DNA of 64,000 bases from Nitrososphaerota archaeon (GCA_041641295.1 JBEPYO010000001.1:602776-666775), one strand, 5' to 3'; shown: positions 4,766-24,957, numbered from the stretch's first letter. Notes: generated by a model from the sequence alone, not told the origin. Program-made: numbers and translations.

Positions 4766-5926
4766 ATGGAAGCTCTGGAGATTGGGATCCGGAGCGGATT
4801 TAGCTATCATAATGTCTGGAGGATGCTGCGTGGTAGTGGAGTAGAAGTATCGAGGTCTACTGTCAGGAGATATTACTACAAGAGATTTCCTGAGAGGTTG
4901 GGGAAGAGAGGGCCGTGCCTCGACAGGTCTATTAGGATTAAGGTTTTCGGCGAGGTCAAAAGGCTGCGGGGATTGGGACATTCGTACAACAAGATCATAA
5001 GGGAGATAGAAGAGGTGTACGGAGTCCGGCTAAGCAAGTCGCAGGTCAGTGAGTGGTTGAGAGGGATACATAACCCATTCAATGGGTGTAGGATACCGTC
5101 CATAGACTTCCTAGAGAAGACCCCAGAACTCGCATACGTTATAGGGGTTGTCTCTGGCGACGGATGGGCTGTTAGAAAAAGAAAAGGCGATGCTAGGATA
5201 GGGGGCATGGTCAAAGACAGGGAGTTCATAGAAGAATTCTCGAGATGCTTGGGACAGGTTCTTAATAGGTATCCGCCGAAGCCTGCACCAATAGGAAACG
5301 GGTTCTTCCGAGTAATTGTTCAATCAAAGGCTCTCTACGACCTGCTTCGGAAGCCTATCGACATAGAGGTGATAAGACCATTCGTGGAGCATTGTGAAGA
5401 GTGTATGAAGAGCTTTTTGAGAGGATTCTTCGACAGCGAAGGCTCAGTAAGTAGTTATGGCTCTATTACATGCGTCAACACTGACGAAAGACTCATCAAC
5501 TATGTTAAGATGCTTCTAAATAATCTAGGCATCAAAACAACTGGGCCACATCTTCAGATGAAGAGAGGAACACCATTCTTCAGCAAGAAGAGGGGCAAGA
5601 CCTACCGGACAAGAAAGGACGCCTATAGCCTCTACATCAGGACATGCAGCAGGCTAAAATTCTACGAGCTAGTAGGCTTCACAATCAAGAAAAGGCAGCA
5701 AAGATTAGAAGAATACCTGAGGAGACTAGGACGCCTAAACATGCCACCCAGCCAAACCTCCCCCCAAACACTATCCTCAACTCCCATCTCAACCTCCCAC
5801 TCACAATATAGAATATCCGGAATGGCCGCGGGTGGGACTCGAACCCACGATCGCCGGGTCCACAGCCCGGAGTGTTACCAGCTACACCACCGCGGCCACC
5901 GCTACGAGTTCGCAGATTTCAGGTAA
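4766..5926 (+). CDS. HTH-LAGLIDADG homing-endonuclease-like protein, paralog 1. The C-terminal ~50 aa read through the antisense of tRNA-His.
   Basis: Two LAGLIDADG motifs (PELAYVIGVVSGDGWAV and FLRGFFDSEGSVSS) with N-terminal tandem HTH-like segments. It is about 45% identical by eye to ORF 14491..15651. The homologous core ends near 5770; the tail SGMAAGGTRTHDRRVHSPECYQLHH is antisense tRNA. Confidence 0.75.
   Translation: MEALEIGIRSGFSYHNVWRMLRGSGVEVSRSTVRRYYYKRFPERLGKRGPCLDRSIRIKVFGEVKRLRGLGHSYNKIIREIEEVYGVRLSKSQVSEWLRGIHNPFNGCRIPSIDFLEKTPELAYVIGVVSGDGWAVRKRKGDARIGGMVKDREFIEEFSRCLGQVLNRYPPKPAPIGNGFFRVIVQSKALYDLLRKPIDIEVIRPFVEHCEECMKSFLRGFFDSEGSVSSYGSITCVNTDERLINYVKMLLNNLGIKTTGPHLQMKRGTPFFSKKRGKTYRTRKDAYSLYIRTCSRLKFYELVGFTIKKRQQRLEEYLRRLGRLNMPPSQTSPQTLSSTPISTSHSQYRISGMAAGGTRTHDRRVHSPECYQLHHRGHRYEFADFR
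5824..5897 (-). tRNA. tRNA-His (GUG) with a genomically encoded G-1
   Basis: Hand-folded cloverleaf. G-1 pairs with C73. The acceptor is GCCGCGG/CCGCGGC, the D-stem GUGU/ACAC, the anticodon loop CUGUGGA and the T-arm GUGGG-UUCGAGU-CCCAC. No CCA is encoded. Confidence 0.85.
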
Positions 5927-8379: not shown

Positions 8380-9661
8380 TCTCCAGCTTTAGGAAGTGTG
8401 TCGCACAGGAGATGCATGGGTCGTAGTTTCTTACCGCCTGCTCGAACCGCCAGACTGCCTGGCTACGTGGGAGCCTCACTATCTCGGGGGCTAGGGCCCG
8501 GAGGTCCTCCTCAATCCTCTTCTGGTTCTGGGCTGTGGGGGGCACTATCTTGGCTGAGAGTATCCGGCCCTCGCCATCCACGTCGTATCTGTGGTAGAGT
8601 ATGCCTCTCGGAGCCTCAGTGCATCCGCAACCTCTCCCAGCTCTGACCTGCGGCTCAACCCTAGGACTCGACGGCTCAACATATTCGTCGATAATCCTGA
8701 GAGCCTCCTCAAAGGAGTAGTATGTCTCAGCAACTCGCGCGATTATGCTCTTGAACGGGTTCCTGCAAGGTGTCTTAAAGCCGATTCTCCTTAAGGCCCC
8801 TTTTGTGCGGTCGTGGAGCTTGTCATAGTTAAGGTTGATTCTGGAGAGGGGGCCGACCATGTATGAGCCCCTGCCGACTATGTAGGAGTGTAGCGCATTG
8901 GAGTGTGGGACCTGCTCCTCCGCAAAATAGTCCTCGTACTGGTCAACATCAATGTCCAATCCCTTATTCGACACAATCCTTCCCTCGTTCATCGGATACT
9001 CTTCTGGGTGTCTGAGGGAGACGAACTCGTAGTCCTGCTCAAAAGCAGGGAACTCTAGGTCCGCAACCCACTCCAGCAGGTCTTCAACAGTCGCCATGTT
9101 TTCTACTAGTCGCTCCCTCAGCTCCATTAGCTCGCGCTTAGAAGGCACGCGGTAGAACCCACCTACGCATGCTGAGACAGGGTGAATCTCCCGGCCACCC
9201 AGCAGCGAGACTATATCATTTCCCAGCTTCTTCACCTTGAGGGCATTCTTCACTACTCTGGGGTGTTTCTTAGCCATCTTAATTGCGTCGTCGTATCCTA
9301 GGAAGTCGGGTGCGTGGAGGAGGAAGGCGTGGAGCATGTGGCTCTCTATCCACTCACCACAGTAGTAAAGCCTCCTCAGACTCCTCACCGACGGGGCTAT
9401 GGTTACGCCGAAGAGCCTTTCAAAAGCATGCACCGAGCTCATCTGATAAGCCACAGGGCAAATCCCGCAGATCCTAGCAGTTATATCTGGGGCGTCATAG
9501 TACATCCGGCCCACTAGCAGTGCTTCGAAGAGCCTCGGAGGCTCGAATATCCTGAACTTGACGTCCACCACCTCGCGGCCTCTAAGCTTGATGTAGAGCG
9601 CGCCCTCGCCCTCAACCCTGGCTAGGTAGTCCACACGGTATTCCTTCTCCCTAGCAGTCAA
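8366..9661 (-). CDS. hydA: [NiFe] hydrogenase large (alpha) subunit, group 3b / sulfhydrogenase-like
   Basis: N-terminal [19 protein letters not shown] (RxCGxC...H) and C-terminal DPCISCATH nickel-binding motifs. 431 aa, matching the Pyrococcus HydA size. Confidence 0.85.
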
Positions 9662-10431
9662 GCCTCAGCCTCCACCTCCCTAAAGCCAGGCGCCCAAGCG
9701 TTGAAGAGTCTGAAGGCCATGACGACTTCCTCCCGCCTCCTACCCAGCTCTATGAAACGCTTCATTAGTGACTTAGAGTTAAGCGACTCTTTAGGCCCGT
9801 AGCAGCCATAGCATCCCCTCCCATAGGCTGGGCAGATGGCCCCACAGCCTGCATGAGTCACTGGCCCGAGACATGGAACGCCCCGAGCCACCATTACACA
9901 TGCCGTGCCCCTCAGCTTACACTCGACACAGACGCTCTGGTTGGGAATGCTGGGCGCCCTCCCCGAGAGGTACGCCGAAATCACCTCGAGTAGCTGGTAC
10001 TTGTTTATTGGGCAGCCCCGGAGTTCGAAGTCAACCGGCACGTGGTCTGAGATGGGGGTAGACTTGTCCAGCGTCTCGATGTATTCTGGCTTCGGATAGA
10101 CGTATTTCATAAACTCGGCTGAGCCCCTCCAGTTCCTGAGGGCCTGTATCCCGCCTGCTGTCGCGCACGCGCCTATGGTTATGAGTACTCTGCAGTTCTT
10201 CCTGATCTCTTTGATGAGCTCGGCGTCGTGGGGGGTTGTGATGCTTCCCTCTACTAGGCCGATGTCATATGGGCCCTTAACTACTGCACGGCTTGCCTCC
10301 AAGAAGTACGCGATCTCGAATGTCTCGCCAATTGTTAGCAACTCCTCCTCCAAGTCGAGGATGCTTAGCTGGCAGCCATCACATGACGCGAATTTATAGA
10401 CTGCAATCTTTGGCCTTCTCTTCGCCATCAC
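9658..10431 (-). CDS. hydD: [NiFe] hydrogenase small (delta) subunit. The likely start is [20 protein letters not shown] at 10431, rather than 10542.
   Basis: FASCDGCQ and GCPI Fe-S/NiFe small-subunit motifs. A start at 10431 gives a 4-nt overlap with the hydG stop; the listed longer ORF would overlap hydG by 115 nt. Confidence 0.8.
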
Positions 10432-14490: not shown

Positions 14491-15651
14491 ATGTCTGGAG
14501 AGAGCTGCCCACGCGTAGCGGAGCCTGTAGCAGGGCAGGGAACAGGAGGACTAAATCCCGGTCTTCTCAACGAGCCCGAGGACCAAACAGGGAAAGGATT
14601 AGGAAGAGTCCGGCAGAGAATGACACCGGAGGAAAAGAAGAAGCTCATGGATGTGCTGAAGAGGGAGGCTCTGAGAGGGCTAGGATACGTGAGAATATGG
14701 CGGATGTTAAGGAAGGATGGGGTAAATGTATCGAGGCGGACCGTAGAATACTGGTATCGCAAGTTTTTTCCAGAGAGATTGGGGAGAAGGGGAAAATACC
14801 TTCCACGCGAATTGAGGATAACGCTGTACGAGGAAGTCCTGAGGCTGAGGAGGCAGGGATTAGGTTACAAGAAGATTAGGCGGAGGATTAAAGAATTATA
14901 TGATATCACGCTTGCACCCGCGGTAATTGTTGATTGGTGTAGAGGAATCCATACACCATATGGCGGAATACGAATTCCTACAGTAGACTACCTGAAGCCA
15001 TCCCCAGAGCTAGCTTATGTCATAGGTGTTGTGTGCGGGGATGGATCAGCTGTTAAAACAAGGGGGAGAAGCGGTGAATATGTTATCGGATCTCAAGTTA
15101 AGGATCGAGAGTTTAGCGAGAGATTCGCAGAATGCCTCGGTCGAATACTGAATAGGAGCCCGCCAACGCCGATACTCGTTAGAGGTAAGTTTCAGGTTTG
15201 TGTAAGATCGAGAACTCTTTACCAACTTCTCCGAAAACCAATCGACATAAACAGGATAAAGAATTTCACGGAGCATTGTGAAGACTGCATGAGAAGTTTC
15301 CTAAAAGGCTTCTTCGATAGCGAAGGATCAGTAAGTAAGGAGGGGGAAATTCGCTGTGACAACTCAGACAAACAACTCCTAAACTATGTCAAGACCCTCC
15401 TGAATCGTTTATGCATCGATGTAACAGGGCCGCACTTAGGTGTAAAGAAAGATACGCCCATCTTTAATAAGGATATGCAGAGAATATACATGAGAAAGAA
15501 AGAAGTATATTATCTCAATATCAGGGCTCCATATAGGCTAAAGTATTACGAGCTTGTTGGATTCTCTATTCGAAAGAAACAACAACGAATGGAAAACTAT
15601 TTCAGGAGAAGAGGACTACTGGGGGGTCGCCTACCAGACCACCCCCTATAG
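14491..15651 (+). CDS. HTH-LAGLIDADG homing-endonuclease-like protein, paralog 2
   Basis: LAGLIDADG motifs PELAYVIGVVCGDGSAV and FLKGFFDSEGSVSK with N-terminal HTH-like segments (LGYVRIWRMLRKDGVNVSRRTV; LGYKKIRRRIKELYDI). It is collinear with ORF 4766..5926. Confidence 0.75.
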   Translation: MSGESCPRVAEPVAGQGTGGLNPGLLNEPEDQTGKGLGRVRQRMTPEEKKKLMDVLKREALRGLGYVRIWRMLRKDGVNVSRRTVEYWYRKFFPERLGRRGKYLPRELRITLYEEVLRLRRQGLGYKKIRRRIKELYDITLAPAVIVDWCRGIHTPYGGIRIPTVDYLKPSPELAYVIGVVCGDGSAVKTRGRSGEYVIGSQVKDREFSERFAECLGRILNRSPPTPILVRGKFQVCVRSRTLYQLLRKPIDINRIKNFTEHCEDCMRSFLKGFFDSEGSVSKEGEIRCDNSDKQLLNYVKTLLNRLCIDVTGPHLGVKKDTPIFNKDMQRIYMRKKEVYYLNIRAPYRLKYYELVGFSIRKKQQRMENYFRRRGLLGGRLPDHPL

Positions 15652-15694
15652 TCTCTTTTCACCCCAATCTTGCTGGTGTCTCATTATATAAATG

Positions 15695-15786
15695 CGGGCC
15701 CGGTGGGACTCGAACCCACGGTTTCCGCGCCTTTAACGCTCTGCGGCTTAGGAGGCCGCCGCCTTATCCTTCTAGGCCACGGGCCC
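15695..15786 (-). tRNA. tRNA-Arg (CCU) with an ~18-nt insertion in the variable region, a putative non-canonical intron
   Basis: Hand-folded. The acceptor is GGGCCCG/CGGGCCC, the D-stem GCCU/AGGC, the anticodon stem GCGGC/GCCGC with loop CUCCUAA, and the T-arm GUGGG-UUCGAGU-CCCAC. Total length is 92 nt because 23 nt, not 5, separate the anticodon stem and T-stem. Confidence 0.7.
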
Positions 15787-19350: not shown

Positions 19351-19447
19351 GGGCCGGTAGATCAGCGGTAGATCGCCCGCCTCGCAAGCGGAGGCCTCGC
19401 TCCGCCGAGAACGCGGGAGGTCCCGGGTTCGAATCCCGGCCGGTCCA
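19351..19447 (+). tRNA. tRNA-Ala (CGC) with a ~25-nt intron at or next to the canonical 37/38 position
   Basis: Acceptor GGGCCGG/CCGGUCC with the G3:U70 Ala identity pair. The anticodon stem CCCGC pairs perfectly with GCGGG only across a 25-nt insert (19387-19411). The insert itself forms a GCGGAG/CTCCGC hairpin. Confidence 0.75.
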
Positions 19448-19514: not shown

Positions 19515-20969
19515 TTGGGAGGATTTATTGCCAAGGAATCCGAGAAGTTCGAGCGGTTCAGTGAGTGGTTTGATAACGTCCTCCTAACGGCGCGGATAGC
19601 CGACAACAGGTATCCTGTGAAGGGGTTTATCGTCTACCTTGAGAATGGGTGGTTCGTCATTGAGAGGATTAGGAGGAGGCTTGAGGAGCTCCTCGAGGAG
19701 GACGGACACCTTCCCATGTATTATCCACTAGTAGCTACGCTGGAGAATTTCTCGCGCGAGGCTGAGCACATCAAGGGGTTCATGGGCGAGGTTTTCGCGG
19801 TCGGTAAGCTTCGGACTGGGGAGAGCGAAGTCCAGGAGGAGGCCCCACTCATACTCAGGCCCACCTCAGAGACCATAATGTACCCGATGTTCGCCCTCTG
19901 GATCAACAACCACTCAGACCTTCCACTGAAGGTCCACCAAAGCTGCGCGGTATACCGCTACGAGACAAAGGCTACTAGGGCCCTCTACAGGGTTAGAGAG
20001 ATTCCGTGGAATGAAGCCCACACAGCCCATGCCACTAGGGAGGAGGCAGAGGCGCAGGTGAGGAAGGCCGTCGAGATCTATAGAAAGGTGTTGGACGAGC
20101 TGGGGATTGCCTACCTCACCCTTCGGAGGCCTGACTTCGACAAGTTCGCAGGCGCGGAATACTCTATAGCGTTTGATGCGTGGAATCCTGACGGGAAAGT
20201 CAACCAGGTTGCGACGGTCCACAACCTGGGGACAAACTTCTCCAGGGTCTTCGGCATAGTCTTTGAGAAGAAGGAGGGGGGTAAGGACTATGCCTGGCAG
20301 CTCTGCTATGGCTTCGGCTACAGTAGGGTCCTCGCAGCCATCATTGCACAGCACGGAGACGACCTAGGACCAATCTTCCCGCCCTGGGTGGCGCCAATCC
20401 AGATCGTAATCGTCCCCATACCGTATAAGGGTAGGGAGGCTGAAGTGTATGAGTACGCTAGGGAGGTGTATAGTCTTTTAAGGCCGGGCTACAGGGTGAG
20501 GCTTGACGACCGCGAGGACGCCACGCCGGGTGAGAAGTACTATTATTGGGAGAGGAGGGGTGTGCCGCTGAGGGTTGAGGTGGGTCCGAGGGATGTTGAG
20601 AAGAGGGCCGTGGTGCTTGCGAGGCGGGACACTGGTGAGAAGTTTAGCGCGCCTATTGAGAAGTTGAGGGAGGAGGTTGCAAGGGTACTTGAGGACATAG
20701 CCCGGAACCTCTCTGAGCGCTCGAAGAAGAGGCTCTGGGAGCAGATAGTAGATGCAAAAAGCCTAGAGGAGGGTGCAAAGAGTGTTGATCTGGGCAAGAT
20801 ATGTAGGGTTAGCTGGTGTGGAAGGGAAGAGTGCGCCCTCTCACTAAAGAGTGCAATGGGTGCGGAGGTGCGTGGATATCGCTACGATGTTGACGAGAAG
20901 AGTGATAGGCCCTGTATTGTCTGCGGCTCACCTGGCAGGACTTATCTCTACGTCTCGAGGGCCTACTGA
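19515..20969 (+). CDS. proS: Prolyl-tRNA synthetase, archaeal/eukaryal type, with a TTG start
   Basis: Class II aaRS motifs, RYPVKG, and a C-terminal ...YVSRAY ending in Tyr, which is typical of archaeal ProRS. Confidence 0.85.
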   Translation: MGGFIAKESEKFERFSEWFDNVLLTARIADNRYPVKGFIVYLENGWFVIERIRRRLEELLEEDGHLPMYYPLVATLENFSREAEHIKGFMGEVFAVGKLRTGESEVQEEAPLILRPTSETIMYPMFALWINNHSDLPLKVHQSCAVYRYETKATRALYRVREIPWNEAHTAHATREEAEAQVRKAVEIYRKVLDELGIAYLTLRRPDFDKFAGAEYSIAFDAWNPDGKVNQVATVHNLGTNFSRVFGIVFEKKEGGKDYAWQLCYGFGYSRVLAAIIAQHGDDLGPIFPPWVAPIQIVIVPIPYKGREAEVYEYAREVYSLLRPGYRVRLDDREDATPGEKYYYWERRGVPLRVEVGPRDVEKRAVVLARRDTGEKFSAPIEKLREEVARVLEDIARNLSERSKKRLWEQIVDAKSLEEGAKSVDLGKICRVSWCGREECALSLKSAMGAEVRGYRYDVDEKSDRPCIVCGSPGRTYLYVSRAY

Positions 20970-20983
20970 GGCAGCGATGTATC

Positions 20984-21763
20984 CTATGTCAGCTCGCCCT
21001 GGCTGACCTCTATTAGGCCCTTCTCCTCCAGCCGCCTCAGAACCTCCTCCACCTCCTCCTCAGGTATCCCAAGGGCCCGGGAGCATGTTTCAACCTCAAG
21101 TACCGAGCCCTCAGGGAGGGAGGAGATGTAGTTGTAGATCATGCGTTCTTTGGACGTGAGTGTTGGGACTTCCGGGAAGCTCTCCGCCATCTTCTGCGCA
21201 ATAATGGCCCTAGCCTCGTCAAGTATCCTCATGGCCTCGTCGGAGAGCTCTTCTTGGTCAGCCTCTTGGGAGGGGAGGCTTATCGACATGCCAGAGCCGG
21301 CTATTAGACTGTCTATCGCGCCACTAAGGCTGTCTAGGCTCTCAGCGGCCTCCGGGACAACCTTCACAATCTCCATCCTGACACGCTCCAACAACCCCTT
21401 CAGCACGGGCGCCAGCCCTATGATCTCCCGGAGCTCCAGAAGACTCTCCATCCTTACCCTAACCTGCTCGAGGACTAGGAGGGACTGGAGGACAATCCTC
21501 GCAATCCTACGGAGCTCGGCTATCTCACCGGCATAAATGGCCGCGTAGCCCTCATCACCCATCTGGAGGGCTTGGATACACCGCTCAAAATACTCCCTCC
21601 CACGAGCCTCCAGCCCCGCATACTTGTTCTTCAAACGGTTAATCTGGGTGTTAAGCATCATGAGGGCGGATGATAGTCTCGAACTGTAGGAGTCTGGCGC
21701 CTCCCTTACTCTGCGCCCCCTCCCAAGGGCCCTGGCCCTGATATACTCAATAATCCTAGCCAT
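20984..21763 (-). CDS. cdvB: ESCRT-III/Snf7-family protein with a C-terminal winged helix (CdvB-like)
   Basis: Snf7-like helical hairpin (REYFERCIQALQMGDEGYAAIYAGEIAELRRIARIV...) plus a C-terminal wH (LEVETCSRALGIPEEEVEEVLRRLEEKGLIEV). No cdvA or cdvC lies adjacent. Confidence 0.5.
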   Translation of the reverse strand: MARIIEYIRARALGRGRRVREAPDSYSSRLSSALMMLNTQINRLKNKYAGLEARGREYFERCIQALQMGDEGYAAIYAGEIAELRRIARIVLQSLLVLEQVRVRMESLLELREIIGLAPVLKGLLERVRMEIVKVVPEAAESLDSLSGAIDSLIAGSGMSISLPSQEADQEELSDEAMRILDEARAIIAQKMAESFPEVPTLTSKERMIYNYISSLPEGSVLEVETCSRALGIPEEEVEEVLRRLEEKGLIEVSQGELT

Positions 21764-21910: not shown

Positions 21911-22096
21911 TTGGGAGGCGTGTCAGGCTCGCGGAGGCGTAGGAGGGAGGCGCCCCTGCCAGCCACTGGGGCAGGGCTACTAAGATTCTTTGAGGAGGAG
22001 ACCAAAGGTATTAAGCTCAAGCCCCAGATAATATTGCTGGCCGGCGGCCTCTTGATAGCAATGGTACTACTGTTTCGAGTCCTCTTCCCAATATAG
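21911..22096 (+). CDS. secG: Preprotein translocase subunit Sec61beta (SecG)
   Basis: AGLLRFFEEETKGIKLKPQ followed by a single C-terminal TM helix. About 60 aa. Confidence 0.75.
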   Translation: MGGVSGSRRRRREAPLPATGAGLLRFFEEETKGIKLKPQIILLAGGLLIAMVLLFRVLFPI

Positions 22097-22173
22097 GGAG
22101 TCCCCCTAAAAACCAGCCTGAAGATGGTGAGGAAAAAATGTAGGAGGTGTATGTGGTAGCGGCAGGGCCTCTT

Positions 22174-22344
22174 CTACTGGCCCTGCTGCGTCTGTGCAGG
22201 CGGCGCCTCTGGAGGAGCTGGCTTCGCGGCAGGCTTCTTGGCCGCAGCCTTCTTCTTGGCTGCAGCCTTCTTCCCCTTCGCGCGCGCCGTCTTCTTTCCA
22301 CCCTTCTTAGCCTTTGCCGACCCCTTAGCTTTTCGCGCCGGCAT
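22174..22344 (-). CDS. Small (56 aa) Lys/Ala-rich basic protein; a candidate chromatin or nucleic-acid-binding protein. It is below the 60-aa cutoff of the ORF track.
   Basis: Hand translation gives MPARKAKGSAKAKKGGKKTARAKGKKAAAKKKAAAKKPAAKPAPPEAPPAQTQQGQ*. The ATG is preceded by CACTATATTTT about 22 nt upstream, and TTATATTA lies further upstream. The opposite-strand ORFs here are Arg/Leu-rich shadows. Confidence 0.6.
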   Translation of the reverse strand: MPARKAKGSAKAKKGGKKTARAKGKKAAAKKKAAAKKPAAKPAPPEAPPAQTQQGQ

Positions 22345-22444
22345 ACCTCACACGCAAAATATAGTGAGATTATCAATAATATAAGAATTTTGCTGTCCCA
22401 GCTATTCCACGAAGGGTTTATACCACCACAGCCACCATGTTTGT

Positions 22445-23041
22445 GTGTTGTCGAGGTTCTCGGTGATTGTTTTAGCAGCGGGTGGGTCGAAGCGGATGGG
22501 GGCGAACAAGCTTCTAACAACACTCTCAGGTAAGCCGCTGGTTTCGTGGAGTGTTGAGGCGGCGCTTGCCTCAGGCTGTGCTGAGGTGGTAGTGGTTGTT
22601 GGACATGAGGCGGAGAGGGTTAGAGAGGTCCTTCCCCCAGGCGTTAGGCCTGTGGTTAACAAGGAGTGGGAGGAGGGGGTTTCAAGCAGTATTAGAAGGG
22701 GTGTGATTGAAGTCTCCCACGACTCGGAGGCGGTGGTCATAATGGTTGCCGACCAGCCCCTAGTCCATCCCTCCATACCAGCGCTCCTAGCCAACCTAGT
22801 GCTTCAGGGAGGGCACCCTCTATCCTGCGCCGCCGTGGGAGGCGAGCCTCGAAACCCGGCCGCCTTCCACAAGAGCCTCTACAACGAGCTGATTGGATTG
22901 GAGGGTGATAGGGGCGCGAAGAGCGTTATTTTCCGGCACCTATCCGAGGCGGCGCTTCTCGAAGTGCCTGAGGAGATGCTTATGGACGTAGATACGCCCG
23001 GGGACTTGGAGAGATTGGCAAAAATCCTGAAACCCAGCTAG
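22445..23041 (+). CDS. MobA-like nucleotidyltransferase (molybdenum cofactor guanylyl/cytidylyltransferase family)
   Basis: N-terminal VIVLAAGGSKRMG NTP-transferase motif. 198 aa. Confidence 0.7.
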   Translation: MLSRFSVIVLAAGGSKRMGANKLLTTLSGKPLVSWSVEAALASGCAEVVVVVGHEAERVREVLPPGVRPVVNKEWEEGVSSSIRRGVIEVSHDSEAVVIMVADQPLVHPSIPALLANLVLQGGHPLSCAAVGGEPRNPAAFHKSLYNELIGLEGDRGAKSVIFRHLSEAALLEVPEEMLMDVDTPGDLERLAKILKPS

Positions 23042-23093: not shown

Positions 23094-23858
23094 TTGGGCA
23101 GGCTTGACGGGCTAGTAGCTCTGGTAACCGGTTCGAGCAGGGGGATTGGTAGGGGCATAGCTGTAGAGATGGCTAGGGAGGGGGCGAAGCTAGCTATACA
23201 CGCGACCCGTATAGAGGGTTTGAGGGAGACTGCTCAGACCCTCACCGAGCTGGGTGCAGACTTTGTGGAGCTTGCAGCAGACCTATCCCGGGCCGAGGCA
23301 TGTGATAGGTTAGTGGACGAGACAGTCGAGAGGATGGGCAGAGTCGACATACTCGTTAATAATGCGGGGGTCAACGTTGCCAAGCCCGCATCGGAGCTAG
23401 GCCTTGACGAGTGGGACTGGGTGTTGGCTGTAAACCTTAAGGCCCCCTTCATCTGCTCGAGGCGCGCCGCCAAATACATGTCAAGTAGGAAGTGGGGTAG
23501 GATTATCAACATAGCCTCGGTGACCTCCTTCATGGGCATCGGGTGCAGAGCGGCCTACGCCTCTTCTAAGTCGGGTATACTGGGTCTGACCCGCACCCTA
23601 GCCCTTGAGTTGGCGCCGCATGGTGTCACGGTCAACGCTATAGCACCGGGATTCATTGCAACCGACATGGTTAAGCGGCGGATAGAGGAGGGGACACTCG
23701 ACCTCGAGAGATTACTCAAGAGAATACCTCTTGGCAGGCTTGGAACCCCAGAGGAGGTGGGGAGGCTGGCGGCGTTCTTGGCAAGCCCCGAGGCCTCCTA
23801 CATCACCGGCCAAGTCTTCGTGATTGACGGCGGGTTCCTAGCCAACGCCACTCCTTGA
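23094..23858 (+). CDS. Short-chain dehydrogenase/reductase (FabG-like)
   Basis: [12 protein letters not shown] Rossmann motif and the YxxxK catalytic motif (YASSK). Confidence 0.85.
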
Positions 23859-23899: not shown

Positions 23900-24505
23900 T
23901 TGAGGATGCCTAAAAAAGGCAGGAATGGAGCGAGCCCCAGAGGAGGGCGCCACAAGCTATCATATCTTGTAGCCCTCATCCCCGCGGCTGTCTTCGTGGG
24001 TCTTATCGTGTTCCTATTATCACAGCCCGCCGCTCAGCCGCCCATCACACAGGTATCCCCTACAGCCGAGAGAAAGGAGGCACCGGACTTCGTATTGAGA
24101 AAGCTCACCCCCAACGGCCTGAGCGATGAGACATTCACCCTTTCATCTGCCAGGGGTAGGGTGGTCTTCCTAGACTTCGCATGGTGGCGGTGCCCACATT
24201 GTAACAACATGGAGCCGGTGATTAAGGACCTCTACTCGGAGTTCAGCGGTCGAGGAGTCGTCTTCGTTACCGTGCTACTCGATGACATGCAGAGCAGTGT
24301 CTCGGATAGTGCCCGCTTCGTCGCCCAGCATGAAATTCCTTGGACGGCTCTCTGGGACGAGGGAGGGAGAGTTTTCAGCCGGTATGGAATAAGGGAGACC
24401 CCCACTTATGTCATAATAAACAGGGAGGGTAAGATTGTCACGGTCGTGAAGGGTGAGCAGCAAAGGCAGGTTCTCGCCGACATTTTGAGATCGGTTCTAG
24501 GGTGA
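23900..24505 (+). CDS. Membrane-anchored thioredoxin-fold thiol:disulfide oxidoreductase (CPHC)
   Basis: N-terminal TM helix and a WRCPHCNNMEP active site with redoxin-family features. Confidence 0.75.
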   Translation: MRMPKKGRNGASPRGGRHKLSYLVALIPAAVFVGLIVFLLSQPAAQPPITQVSPTAERKEAPDFVLRKLTPNGLSDETFTLSSARGRVVFLDFAWWRCPHCNNMEPVIKDLYSEFSGRGVVFVTVLLDDMQSSVSDSARFVAQHEIPWTALWDEGGRVFSRYGIRETPTYVIINREGKIVTVVKGEQQRQVLADILRSVLG

Positions 24506-24957
24506 TAGGTGGCTTGGGCCACTGGTCGCCTCCACGCATGGCGTACCTATCCTCAGCCATCCTCTCAGCCGCAGGTCTCCCCCTCTCGATCTATCTAGTC
24601 TCACCGGGCGAGCTCCCCCAGTTCTGCGAGGTTGGGAGCAGATTCTCCTGCGTGACGGTAATCCACAGCGAGTACTCCAGATTCATGGGCATACCTGTTG
24701 CAGCTGTTGGGGCTTTATGGTTTGGAGGGGCCCTAGCCCTGTCCTTGGCAGCGGTGGCTGGGCTCAGGGTTGGGAACATCCTCCTATACTGGTCGGTCCT
24801 AGGCGTTCTCGGCGCTCTGGCCCTACTCTTCGTCGAGATATTCATGATAGGGAGTATATGCCTGCTCTGCACCTTTGCGCACGCAGCAGGGGCAGGGATC
24901 TTTGCAGCAGCCTACCTAGCACATATCTGGACTCAGCCGCCCATAACCTCTGGGTAG
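24502..24957 (+). CDS. Vitamin K epoxide reductase (VKOR) family protein
   Basis: Loop cysteines FCEVGSRFSC, a TM-embedded CLLC active site and several TM helices. It overlaps the upstream Trx-like gene by 4 nt. Confidence 0.75.
   Translation: MIGGLGHWSPPRMAYLSSAILSAAGLPLSIYLVSPGELPQFCEVGSRFSCVTVIHSEYSRFMGIPVAAVGALWFGGALALSLAAVAGLRVGNILLYWSVLGVLGALALLFVEIFMIGSICLLCTFAHAAGAGIFAAAYLAHIWTQPPITSG

Follow-up and report, generated by a model that had tools for sequence, protein, structure and literature searches.

A conserved small gene for a lysine- and alanine-rich polycation in Calditenuaceae archaea and its possible role in nucleic acid binding

A number of very basic proteins are relevant to the gene described here. 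Lysine-, alanine-, and proline-rich proteins resembling histone H1 are found in bacteria, and these include Hc1 and Hc2 of Chlamydia and the C-terminal tail of mycobacterial HupB. Alba, Cren7, Sul7d, and CC1 are abundant DNA-binding proteins of thermophilic archaea. Very small, highly basic ribosomal proteins, such as eL41 and eL39, are present in archaea and eukaryotes. In kinetoplastids, single-domain H1 proteins consist of the H1 C-terminal-type domain only, according to a passage of PMC10919886 that cites Kasinsky et al. (2001). A histone is present in the archaeon Caldiarchaeum subterraneum (PMC6136690). An H1-tail-like polycation is a known kind of protein, and the one reported here is new in a group from which none had been described earlier. 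Literature searches turned up no account of such a protein from Aigarchaeota or from other archaea, and the small gene is mentioned neither in PMC4681859 nor in the main text of PMC12979851.

The gene lies in a 64,000-nucleotide stretch of a Nitrososphaerota archaeon genome (GCA_041641295.1, JBEPYO010000001.1:602776-666775), which is called the window here. Positions 22174-22344 on the minus strand hold an ATG...TAG frame of 56 codons, with the stop codon TAG at 22176-22174. The translation is MPARKAKGSAKAKKGGKKTARAKGKKAAAKKKAAAKKPAAKPAPPEAPPAQTQQGQ, an exact match to the minus-strand product in a preliminary description of this DNA. That product had been called Lys/Ala-rich with a pI above 11, and the computed pI is 11.51. 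The protein has a net charge of +17, with 18 lysine and arginine residues versus one aspartate or glutamate, as well as 17 alanines and seven prolines. By its computed composition, it has no aromatic residues and no I, L, V, F, W, or C. Residues 1-41 form a basic Lys/Arg/Ala block. This is followed by a KPAP hinge and an uncharged Pro/Ala/Gln/Glu tail, and the C-terminal peptide is (K)PAPTEAPPAQPQQGQ. An 18-nt tandem duplication was identified inside the coding sequence at 22234..22273 by Tandem Repeats Finder (2.2 copies, 95% match). The repeated unit encodes KKAAAK. Two close relatives do not have part of this stretch, with 18 nt fewer in L002 and 15 nt fewer in L004, and the duplication is the source of in-frame length differences among the orthologs.

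The small ORF is convergent with Sec61beta (21911-22096, plus strand) and divergent from a MocA/MobA-like nucleotidyltransferase gene (22445-23041, plus strand). Beyond Sec61beta are a gene for a CdvB/ESCRT-III-like protein with a C-terminal winged helix (20984-21763, minus strand) and ProRS (19515-20969, plus strand). A short-chain dehydrogenase gene (23094-23858, plus strand) follows on the other side. The 3.5 kb around the small ORF contains 31 ORFs of 30 aa or longer, and in every ortholog four of the six frames are open through the purine-rich stretch that the small ORF occupies. A 56-codon open frame alone is not significant here. It is the composition and the conservation that exceed chance. 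The six-frame translation of the window contains no other Lys-rich low-complexity ORF. The gene uses AAG for 15 of its 16 lysine codons versus 79% genome-wide, a difference that is not significant, and this codon bias therefore provides no evidence on expression level.

In every related locus that was retrieved, the same position, convergent with Sec61beta, is taken by an ortholog of 43-56 aa. Orthologs are present in seven GTDB species representatives (L002-L008), in which ProRS is 73-93% and the MocA-like protein 55-87% identical to those of the window. Seven metagenome contigs with the ortholog (L010-L016) were found via the conserved upstream DNA motif. The ortholog of L025/L026 has a 49-aa product. 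Two distant low-GC lineages (42-47%), L027 and L028, encode MSAKKKKAKAKKAKKTRRSVKKAAKPAPAIEEKLAEGGGETSA and MPAKKKAKKGKKAKKSTRPRKAAKKAAKPAPAAEEKPAESKAEGAGAGTTTA; their DNA is largely changed and the protein architecture is retained. In these two lineages the CdvB-like neighbour is 51-52% identical and the upstream neighbour is GlmS in place of the MocA-like gene. Thus, the small gene stays linked to the Sec61beta/CdvB side. The orthologs run from ATG to stop in a single frame despite their different lengths.

The closest genomes are MAGs labelled Archaeon HR02, Candidatus Calditenuaceae, Candidatus Caldarchaeales, and Nitrososphaerota. The host had been taken for a crenarchaeon, and these genomes place it in Calditenuaceae/Caldarchaeales ('Aigarchaeota') instead. 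On present evidence, the small gene is confined to Calditenuaceae and close relatives within Caldarchaeales. Synteny around it is lost in Caldarchaeum-like loci, and no Lys/Ala-rich ORF was found within 10 kb on either side in those loci, a result that covers only that interval of the genomes. Because of low complexity, homologs are elusive to sequence searches. The CdvB relatives P0012-P0014 (41-48% identity) were considered as a route to distant Caldarchaeales and were set aside, as they are canonical CdvB proteins adjoining Vps4 in a different genomic context.

The gene had been described as unannotated. The exact 56-aa product is in fact on record on four contigs, and it has no family assignment there. 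These contigs include a 1.26-Mb contig of NCBI GCA_009889515.1 and JGI metagenome 3300038392. The four were found through a gene-position index, and the protein was absent from an exact-sequence cluster look-up. For the identical DNA of L025 and L026 (around 9454-9872), the JGI-sourced record lists a 49-aa Lys/Ala-rich gene and Sec61beta, and the NCBI-sourced record lists neither. This discrepancy shows that the annotation of such small genes is inconsistent.

Several kinds of evidence indicate that the small ORF is a protein-coding gene. A codon-usage log-odds score was trained on 36 long ORFs of the window. The frame of the small ORF scored highest of the six at +8.6 bits, and the other frames scored from +1.0 to -30.8. 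Indels and divergence were counted in a MAFFT nucleotide alignment, which is blind to reading frame. All 14 distinct gap runs inside the coding sequence are multiples of three (3, 6, 12, 15, 18, and 30 nt), and gaps of 1, 2, and 7 nt are present in the flanks in the same alignment. Pairwise divergence at codon positions 1, 2, and 3 is 0.27, 0.26, and 0.45 in this alignment, and 0.24, 0.23, and 0.48 in a protein-guided alignment. The pN/pS of the small ORF frame is 0.37 overall (0.14-0.44 in individual pairs). Four other frames have values of 1.17-1.77, and the antisense frame with shared wobble positions has 0.475. Judging from these substitutions, the small gene is under purifying selection.

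Other frames were explored as possible genes. The antisense frame that shares the wobble position has no conserved start and opposes the orientation of the promoter and terminator. The plus-strand ORF at 22147-22533 (128 aa, Leu/Arg-rich) has a negative coding score and a pN/pS above 1, and it is the artefact that it had been taken for. An Arg-rich minus-strand ORF at 22017-22523 (168 aa) also has a negative coding score and a pN/pS above 1 and is likewise an artefact. The small ORF combines the general features of a protein-coding gene, which are a conserved frame, in-frame indels, a synonymous excess, and a start, stop, and promoter in consistent orientation. The preliminary description had proposed a genuine minus-strand gene, and ortholog conservation, coding-type substitutions, and in-frame indels all agree with this. 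Among the observations that would speak against the gene, it had also named a lack of conservation in related genomes and codon statistics favouring the opposite strand. The ORF is conserved in related genomes, and both codon and substitution statistics favour its own strand and frame. The small ORF is very probably a real gene.

Searches with the protein itself returned little. Pfam-A (hmmscan) and NCBIfam gave no family for the 56-aa protein at E<=1, in agreement with the earlier statement that it does not match the known chromatin-protein families. No match was found in PHROGs. A profile of eight orthologs had no hits at E<=10 among all PDB chains, which include those of archaeal ribosomes. 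No homolog was found among 5.8 billion proteins, either with the single sequence or with the eight-ortholog profile at E<=1, and the true orthologs were missed as well. Likewise, phmmer found no homolog among 1.84 billion representative proteins. The HMMER negatives are weak because composition correction lowers the scores of a 56-aa low-complexity query. There was no Rfam match at the locus even at E<=1, and the predicted transcript folds marginally better than its shuffles (z = -2.15).

The region before the small ORF had been described as promoter-like, and two boxes are indeed conserved there, with 4-5% divergence within DNA that is 33-48% divergent. Box 1, AAAATTCTTATATTAT / AAAAYTCTTATAYTAT, is at 22376..22391 on the minus strand, and its divergence is 0.04 across nine lineages. 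It contains TTATATTA at 22384-22377, which is -40..-33 from the ATG. Box 1 is a probable BRE plus TATA box, and L027 and L028, though distant and low in GC, still have its CTTATAY. Box 2, ACTATATTTTGCG / ACTATATYTYGCG, is at 22353..22365 on the minus strand (-21..-9) with a divergence of 0.05. It contains TATATTTT at 22363-22356, or -19..-12 counted from the A of the ATG. Divergence outside the boxes is 0.48 between them, 0.37 farther upstream, and 0.33 over the 8 nt next to the ATG. Conservation upstream of the gene is lowest at -31..-22, with a divergence of 0.48.

Archaeal TATA boxes have their centre about 26-27 nt before the transcription start site. With a centre near -15.5, TATATTTT is too near the ATG for a TATA role, since transcription would then start inside the ORF. 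Box 2 is more likely to be an AT-rich proximal promoter element and initiator region, with a predicted transcription start near G22353. Two TATA-like elements and a leaderless start had been proposed for this gene. Both elements are present, but TATATTTT is at -19..-12 and not at about -22. The leaderless start does not fit this geometry, as the boxes are centred at about -36.5 and -15.5 and the position that a TATA box would occupy for a leaderless start is the least conserved. A leader of about 9 nt, predicted from the upstream box centred near -36.5, is likelier. There is no convincing Shine-Dalgarno sequence in this predicted leader; a GAGGT abuts the ATG and is not conserved. The TATA-like boxes of other genes in the window are mostly centred 24-36 nt before their start codons, in a small and noisy sample.

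A conserved T6 run at 22133..22138 on the minus strand, 36-41 nt past the stop codon, is a candidate oligo-T terminator. A T6-T7 run is present about 35-45 nt past the stop in all orthologous loci, and its divergence is 0.26 versus 0.53 in the preceding 35 nt. These signals fit a predicted monocistronic RNA of about 220 nt that would end at the oligo-T terminator. Given how well the promoter-like region is conserved, high expression of the small gene would be plausible. A hairpin, GGGCC-N9-GGCCC, spans the stop codon at 22163-22185 (minus strand). It was set aside, as it is kept, with changes, only in L002-L004 and not in the distant orthologs.

Other features of the window were also noted. 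The CdvB/ESCRT-III-like gene beside Sec61beta is a paralog with a TrmB-like winged-helix hit, and no Vps4/CdvC gene lies next to it. In Caldarchaeum-like genomes (L019-L024), relatives 41-48% identical to it directly adjoin the Vps4 AAA-ATPase. In public gene calls, the MocA-like gene starts at ATG 22496 (181 aa), which removes the N-terminal VIVLAAGGSKRMG nucleotide-binding motif. An alternative start, GTG 22445, has TTTATA at -28..-23 (22417-22422), and this GGTATAAA box is conserved in most orthologs. GTG 22445 looks like the true start, and the MocA-like gene is probably leaderless. At 23900-24957 (plus strand) there is a gene for a thioredoxin/AhpC-TSA-fold protein (201 aa, with an N-terminal hydrophobic segment), followed with a 4-nt overlap by one for a VKOR-family membrane protein. 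The two are kept in related loci and are likely an extracytoplasmic disulfide-formation pair.

In addition, the window contains two paralogous 386-aa ORFs, 4766-5926 and 14491-15651 (both plus strand), that are 55% identical over 320 aa. No DNA-level repeat linking the two copies was found. ORF 14491-15651 carries a LAGLIDADG_3 hit (gene at L001 12113-12780). tRNA-His(GTG) at 5823-5897 (minus strand) overlaps the 3' end of ORF 4766-5926. tRNA-Arg(CCT) at 15694-15786 (minus strand) lies 43 nt past ORF 14491-15651; at 93 nt, it is too long for a plain tRNA and possibly contains an intron. The two ORFs may be free-standing homing-endonuclease-like genes at tRNA loci. Another tRNA, at 19351-19447 (plus strand, 97 nt), lies about 70 nt upstream of ProRS. 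It was identified by Rfam only (58 bits), was missed by ARAGORN, and may also contain an intron.

The features of the protein family can indicate what is maintained by selection. The 14 family members compared are 43-56 aa long, have a pI of 10.5-12.0, and carry a net charge between +11 and +19. None has an aromatic residue, and each has 0-3 hydrophobic ones. They start with MPA(R/K)K, except for one member with MSAKK. A basic block of 30-40 residues follows, almost all of them Lys, Arg, Ala, and Gly. The hinge is of the (K)KP...KPAP type, and the tail of 12-25 residues is neutral to slightly acidic and rich in P, A, E, Q, T, and G. The sequence of the basic block drifts among orthologs, and its length varies in-frame. 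A C-terminal GGQ/Pup-like or ubiquitin-like conjugation signal was ruled out, as the last residues are not conserved.

In an AlphaFold2 prediction of moderate confidence, run with no alignment (pLDDT 72, pTM 0.32), residues 3-36 form a single helix, the tail is coil, and there is no globular fold. A fixed helix is unlikely because orthologs carry proline and glycine inside the basic block. Lacking aromatic residues and having three hydrophobic ones at most, the protein cannot build a hydrophobic core. Alone, it would be expected to be disordered or to form no more than one helix. Charge and composition are kept while the sequence drifts and expands by the 18-nt duplication, which is the pattern to be expected of selection on bulk charge. 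From the sequences compared, selection appears to act on charge and composition and not on fold.

The possible function of the protein can be considered from its composition. The basic block would neutralise phosphate charge through electrostatic binding to nucleic acid that is not sequence-specific, in the way of the C-terminal domain of histone H1 and the bacterial H1-like proteins. The neutral tail would remain exposed. DNA rather than RNA would most likely be the target, although the composition is equally compatible with RNA/ribosome or polyphosphate binding, and the binding could serve compaction or thermal stabilisation of the nucleoid in a thermophile. The neighbourhood is uninformative on function because the gene is not in an operon, being convergent with Sec61beta and divergent from MocA-like/GlmS. 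Taken jointly, a real gene and a nucleic-acid-binding polycation are modestly favoured. A more specific proposal can be offered only tentatively and is more doubtful than the general one. The protein might be a stand-alone archaeal analogue of a linker-histone- or protamine-like basic tail, abundant beside histone chromatin in Caldarchaeales and compacting DNA at 70-85 C.

A different possibility is that the protein is a lineage-specific mini-protein associated with ribosomes or RNA, such as an extra ribosomal protein, a hibernation-type factor, or an RNA chaperone. Its size and charge place it in the class of the small basic ribosomal proteins, its promoter stands alone and is strongly conserved, and it would be disordered unless bound to a partner. 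The gene is also 1.2 kb from ProRS and adjoins Sec61beta, a weak point since it is convergent and not co-transcribed with Sec61beta. However, no ribosomal-protein model in Pfam/NCBIfam and no PDB chain was matched, and the gene is outside ribosomal-protein operons. Variable length and tolerated tandem duplications would be unusual for a protein seated in an rRNA pocket, and the neutral Pro/Gln/Glu tail is atypical of ribosomal proteins. This role appears unlikely.

The polycation could instead be meant for another polyanion or could act as a general shield, either organising polyphosphate granules or protecting against aggregation as a heat-resistant disordered protein. Its composition is like that of the AlgP-type Lys/Ala/Pro-rich proteins, and its hosts live in hot springs. 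AlgP, the H1-like protein of Pseudomonas, localises to polyphosphate granules (PMC9239181). Yet AlgP is ten times as long as the archaeal protein, in which a regular array of KPAA repeats is lacking, and nothing in the locus suggests polyphosphate metabolism. The argument for such a role is also purely compositional, and the role is judged improbable. If the protein were ribosomal or a general polyanion binder, it would extend the list of lineage-specific small proteins only modestly.

That there is no protein at all, and the locus instead holds a non-coding small RNA, a gene read from another frame or strand, or an ORF that arose by chance in a spacer rich in purines, is very improbable: the four open frames in all orthologs, the slightly better folding of the transcript than of shuffles, the pN/pS of 0.475 in the wobble-sharing antisense frame, and the empty HMMER-based searches could be read in this way, but every indel is in-frame with non-triplet indels in the flanks, substitutions have a three-base periodicity with the lowest pN/pS in the ORF frame, the ATG and first residues (MPA) are conserved with a stop in the same frame, the promoter boxes upstream and oligo-T downstream are in the orientation of the ORF, Rfam gave no match, and the architecture is kept in the 42-47% GC lineages despite their largely changed DNA.

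The reading of a DNA-binding, H1-tail-like polycation, if true, would bring a new class of nucleoid-associated protein to the archaea, one hidden from homology searches by its shortness and low complexity. If the protein is expressed and binds DNA, an intrinsically disordered type would join the short list of archaeal chromatin proteins, and H1-tail-like charge neutralisers would be known from an archaeal lineage close to Thaumarchaeota. The idea is directly testable, since Calditenuis ramacidaminiphagus has been cultivated and metaproteome data exist for it (PMC12979851). The small-gene family also evades length cut-offs and composition-biased homology filters, and it was recoverable only through synteny.

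Compared with the C-terminal domain of histone H1, the archaeal protein is alike in being Lys/Ala/Pro-rich, very basic, and of low complexity with no sequence-specific motif. Both are predicted to be disordered, or helical only when bound, and both have short in-frame repeats that vary their length. A Lys/Ala/Pro-rich basic disordered tail is found in the 56-aa protein and in 14 orthologs, a feature that alone does not define membership of H1. The archaeal protein differs from linker histone H1/H5 (PF00538) in having no winged-helix globular domain (GH1/GH5) and only 43-56 aa. It also differs in its neutral Pro/Gln/Glu tail and its archaeal host. The resemblance to H1 is most likely convergence, as homology of low-complexity sequence is neither demonstrable nor excludable.

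Hc1/Hc2, AlgP, and the HupB tail are alike in being prokaryotic and dominated by lysine, alanine, and proline repeats, and they bind DNA (polyphosphate for AlgP) electrostatically. The archaeal protein differs from Hc1 (PF07432) in having no Pfam/NCBIfam match at E<=1, in being much shorter, and in standing alone. In place of the KPAA arrays of the AlgP type, it has only one 18-nt unit in 2.2 copies. The MPA(R/K)K start, the KPAP hinge, and the neutral tail are specific to the archaeal family as compared with the bacterial H1-like proteins.

Alba, Cren7, Sul7d, and CC1 are likewise small and basic, and the same role is proposed here as for them. They are folded, with SH3-like or Alba folds and hydrophobic cores, whereas the archaeal polycation has 0-3 hydrophobic residues. 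No match to these proteins or to histone-fold models was found in Pfam, NCBIfam, or the PDB profile search at E<=10. The archaeal polycation differs from eL41 and eL39 in being Ala-rich rather than Arg-rich, variable in length, and provided with a neutral tail, and it has no ribosomal operon and no model or PDB match. What it shares with these two ribosomal proteins is size, charge, and the need for a nucleic-acid partner in order to be structured.
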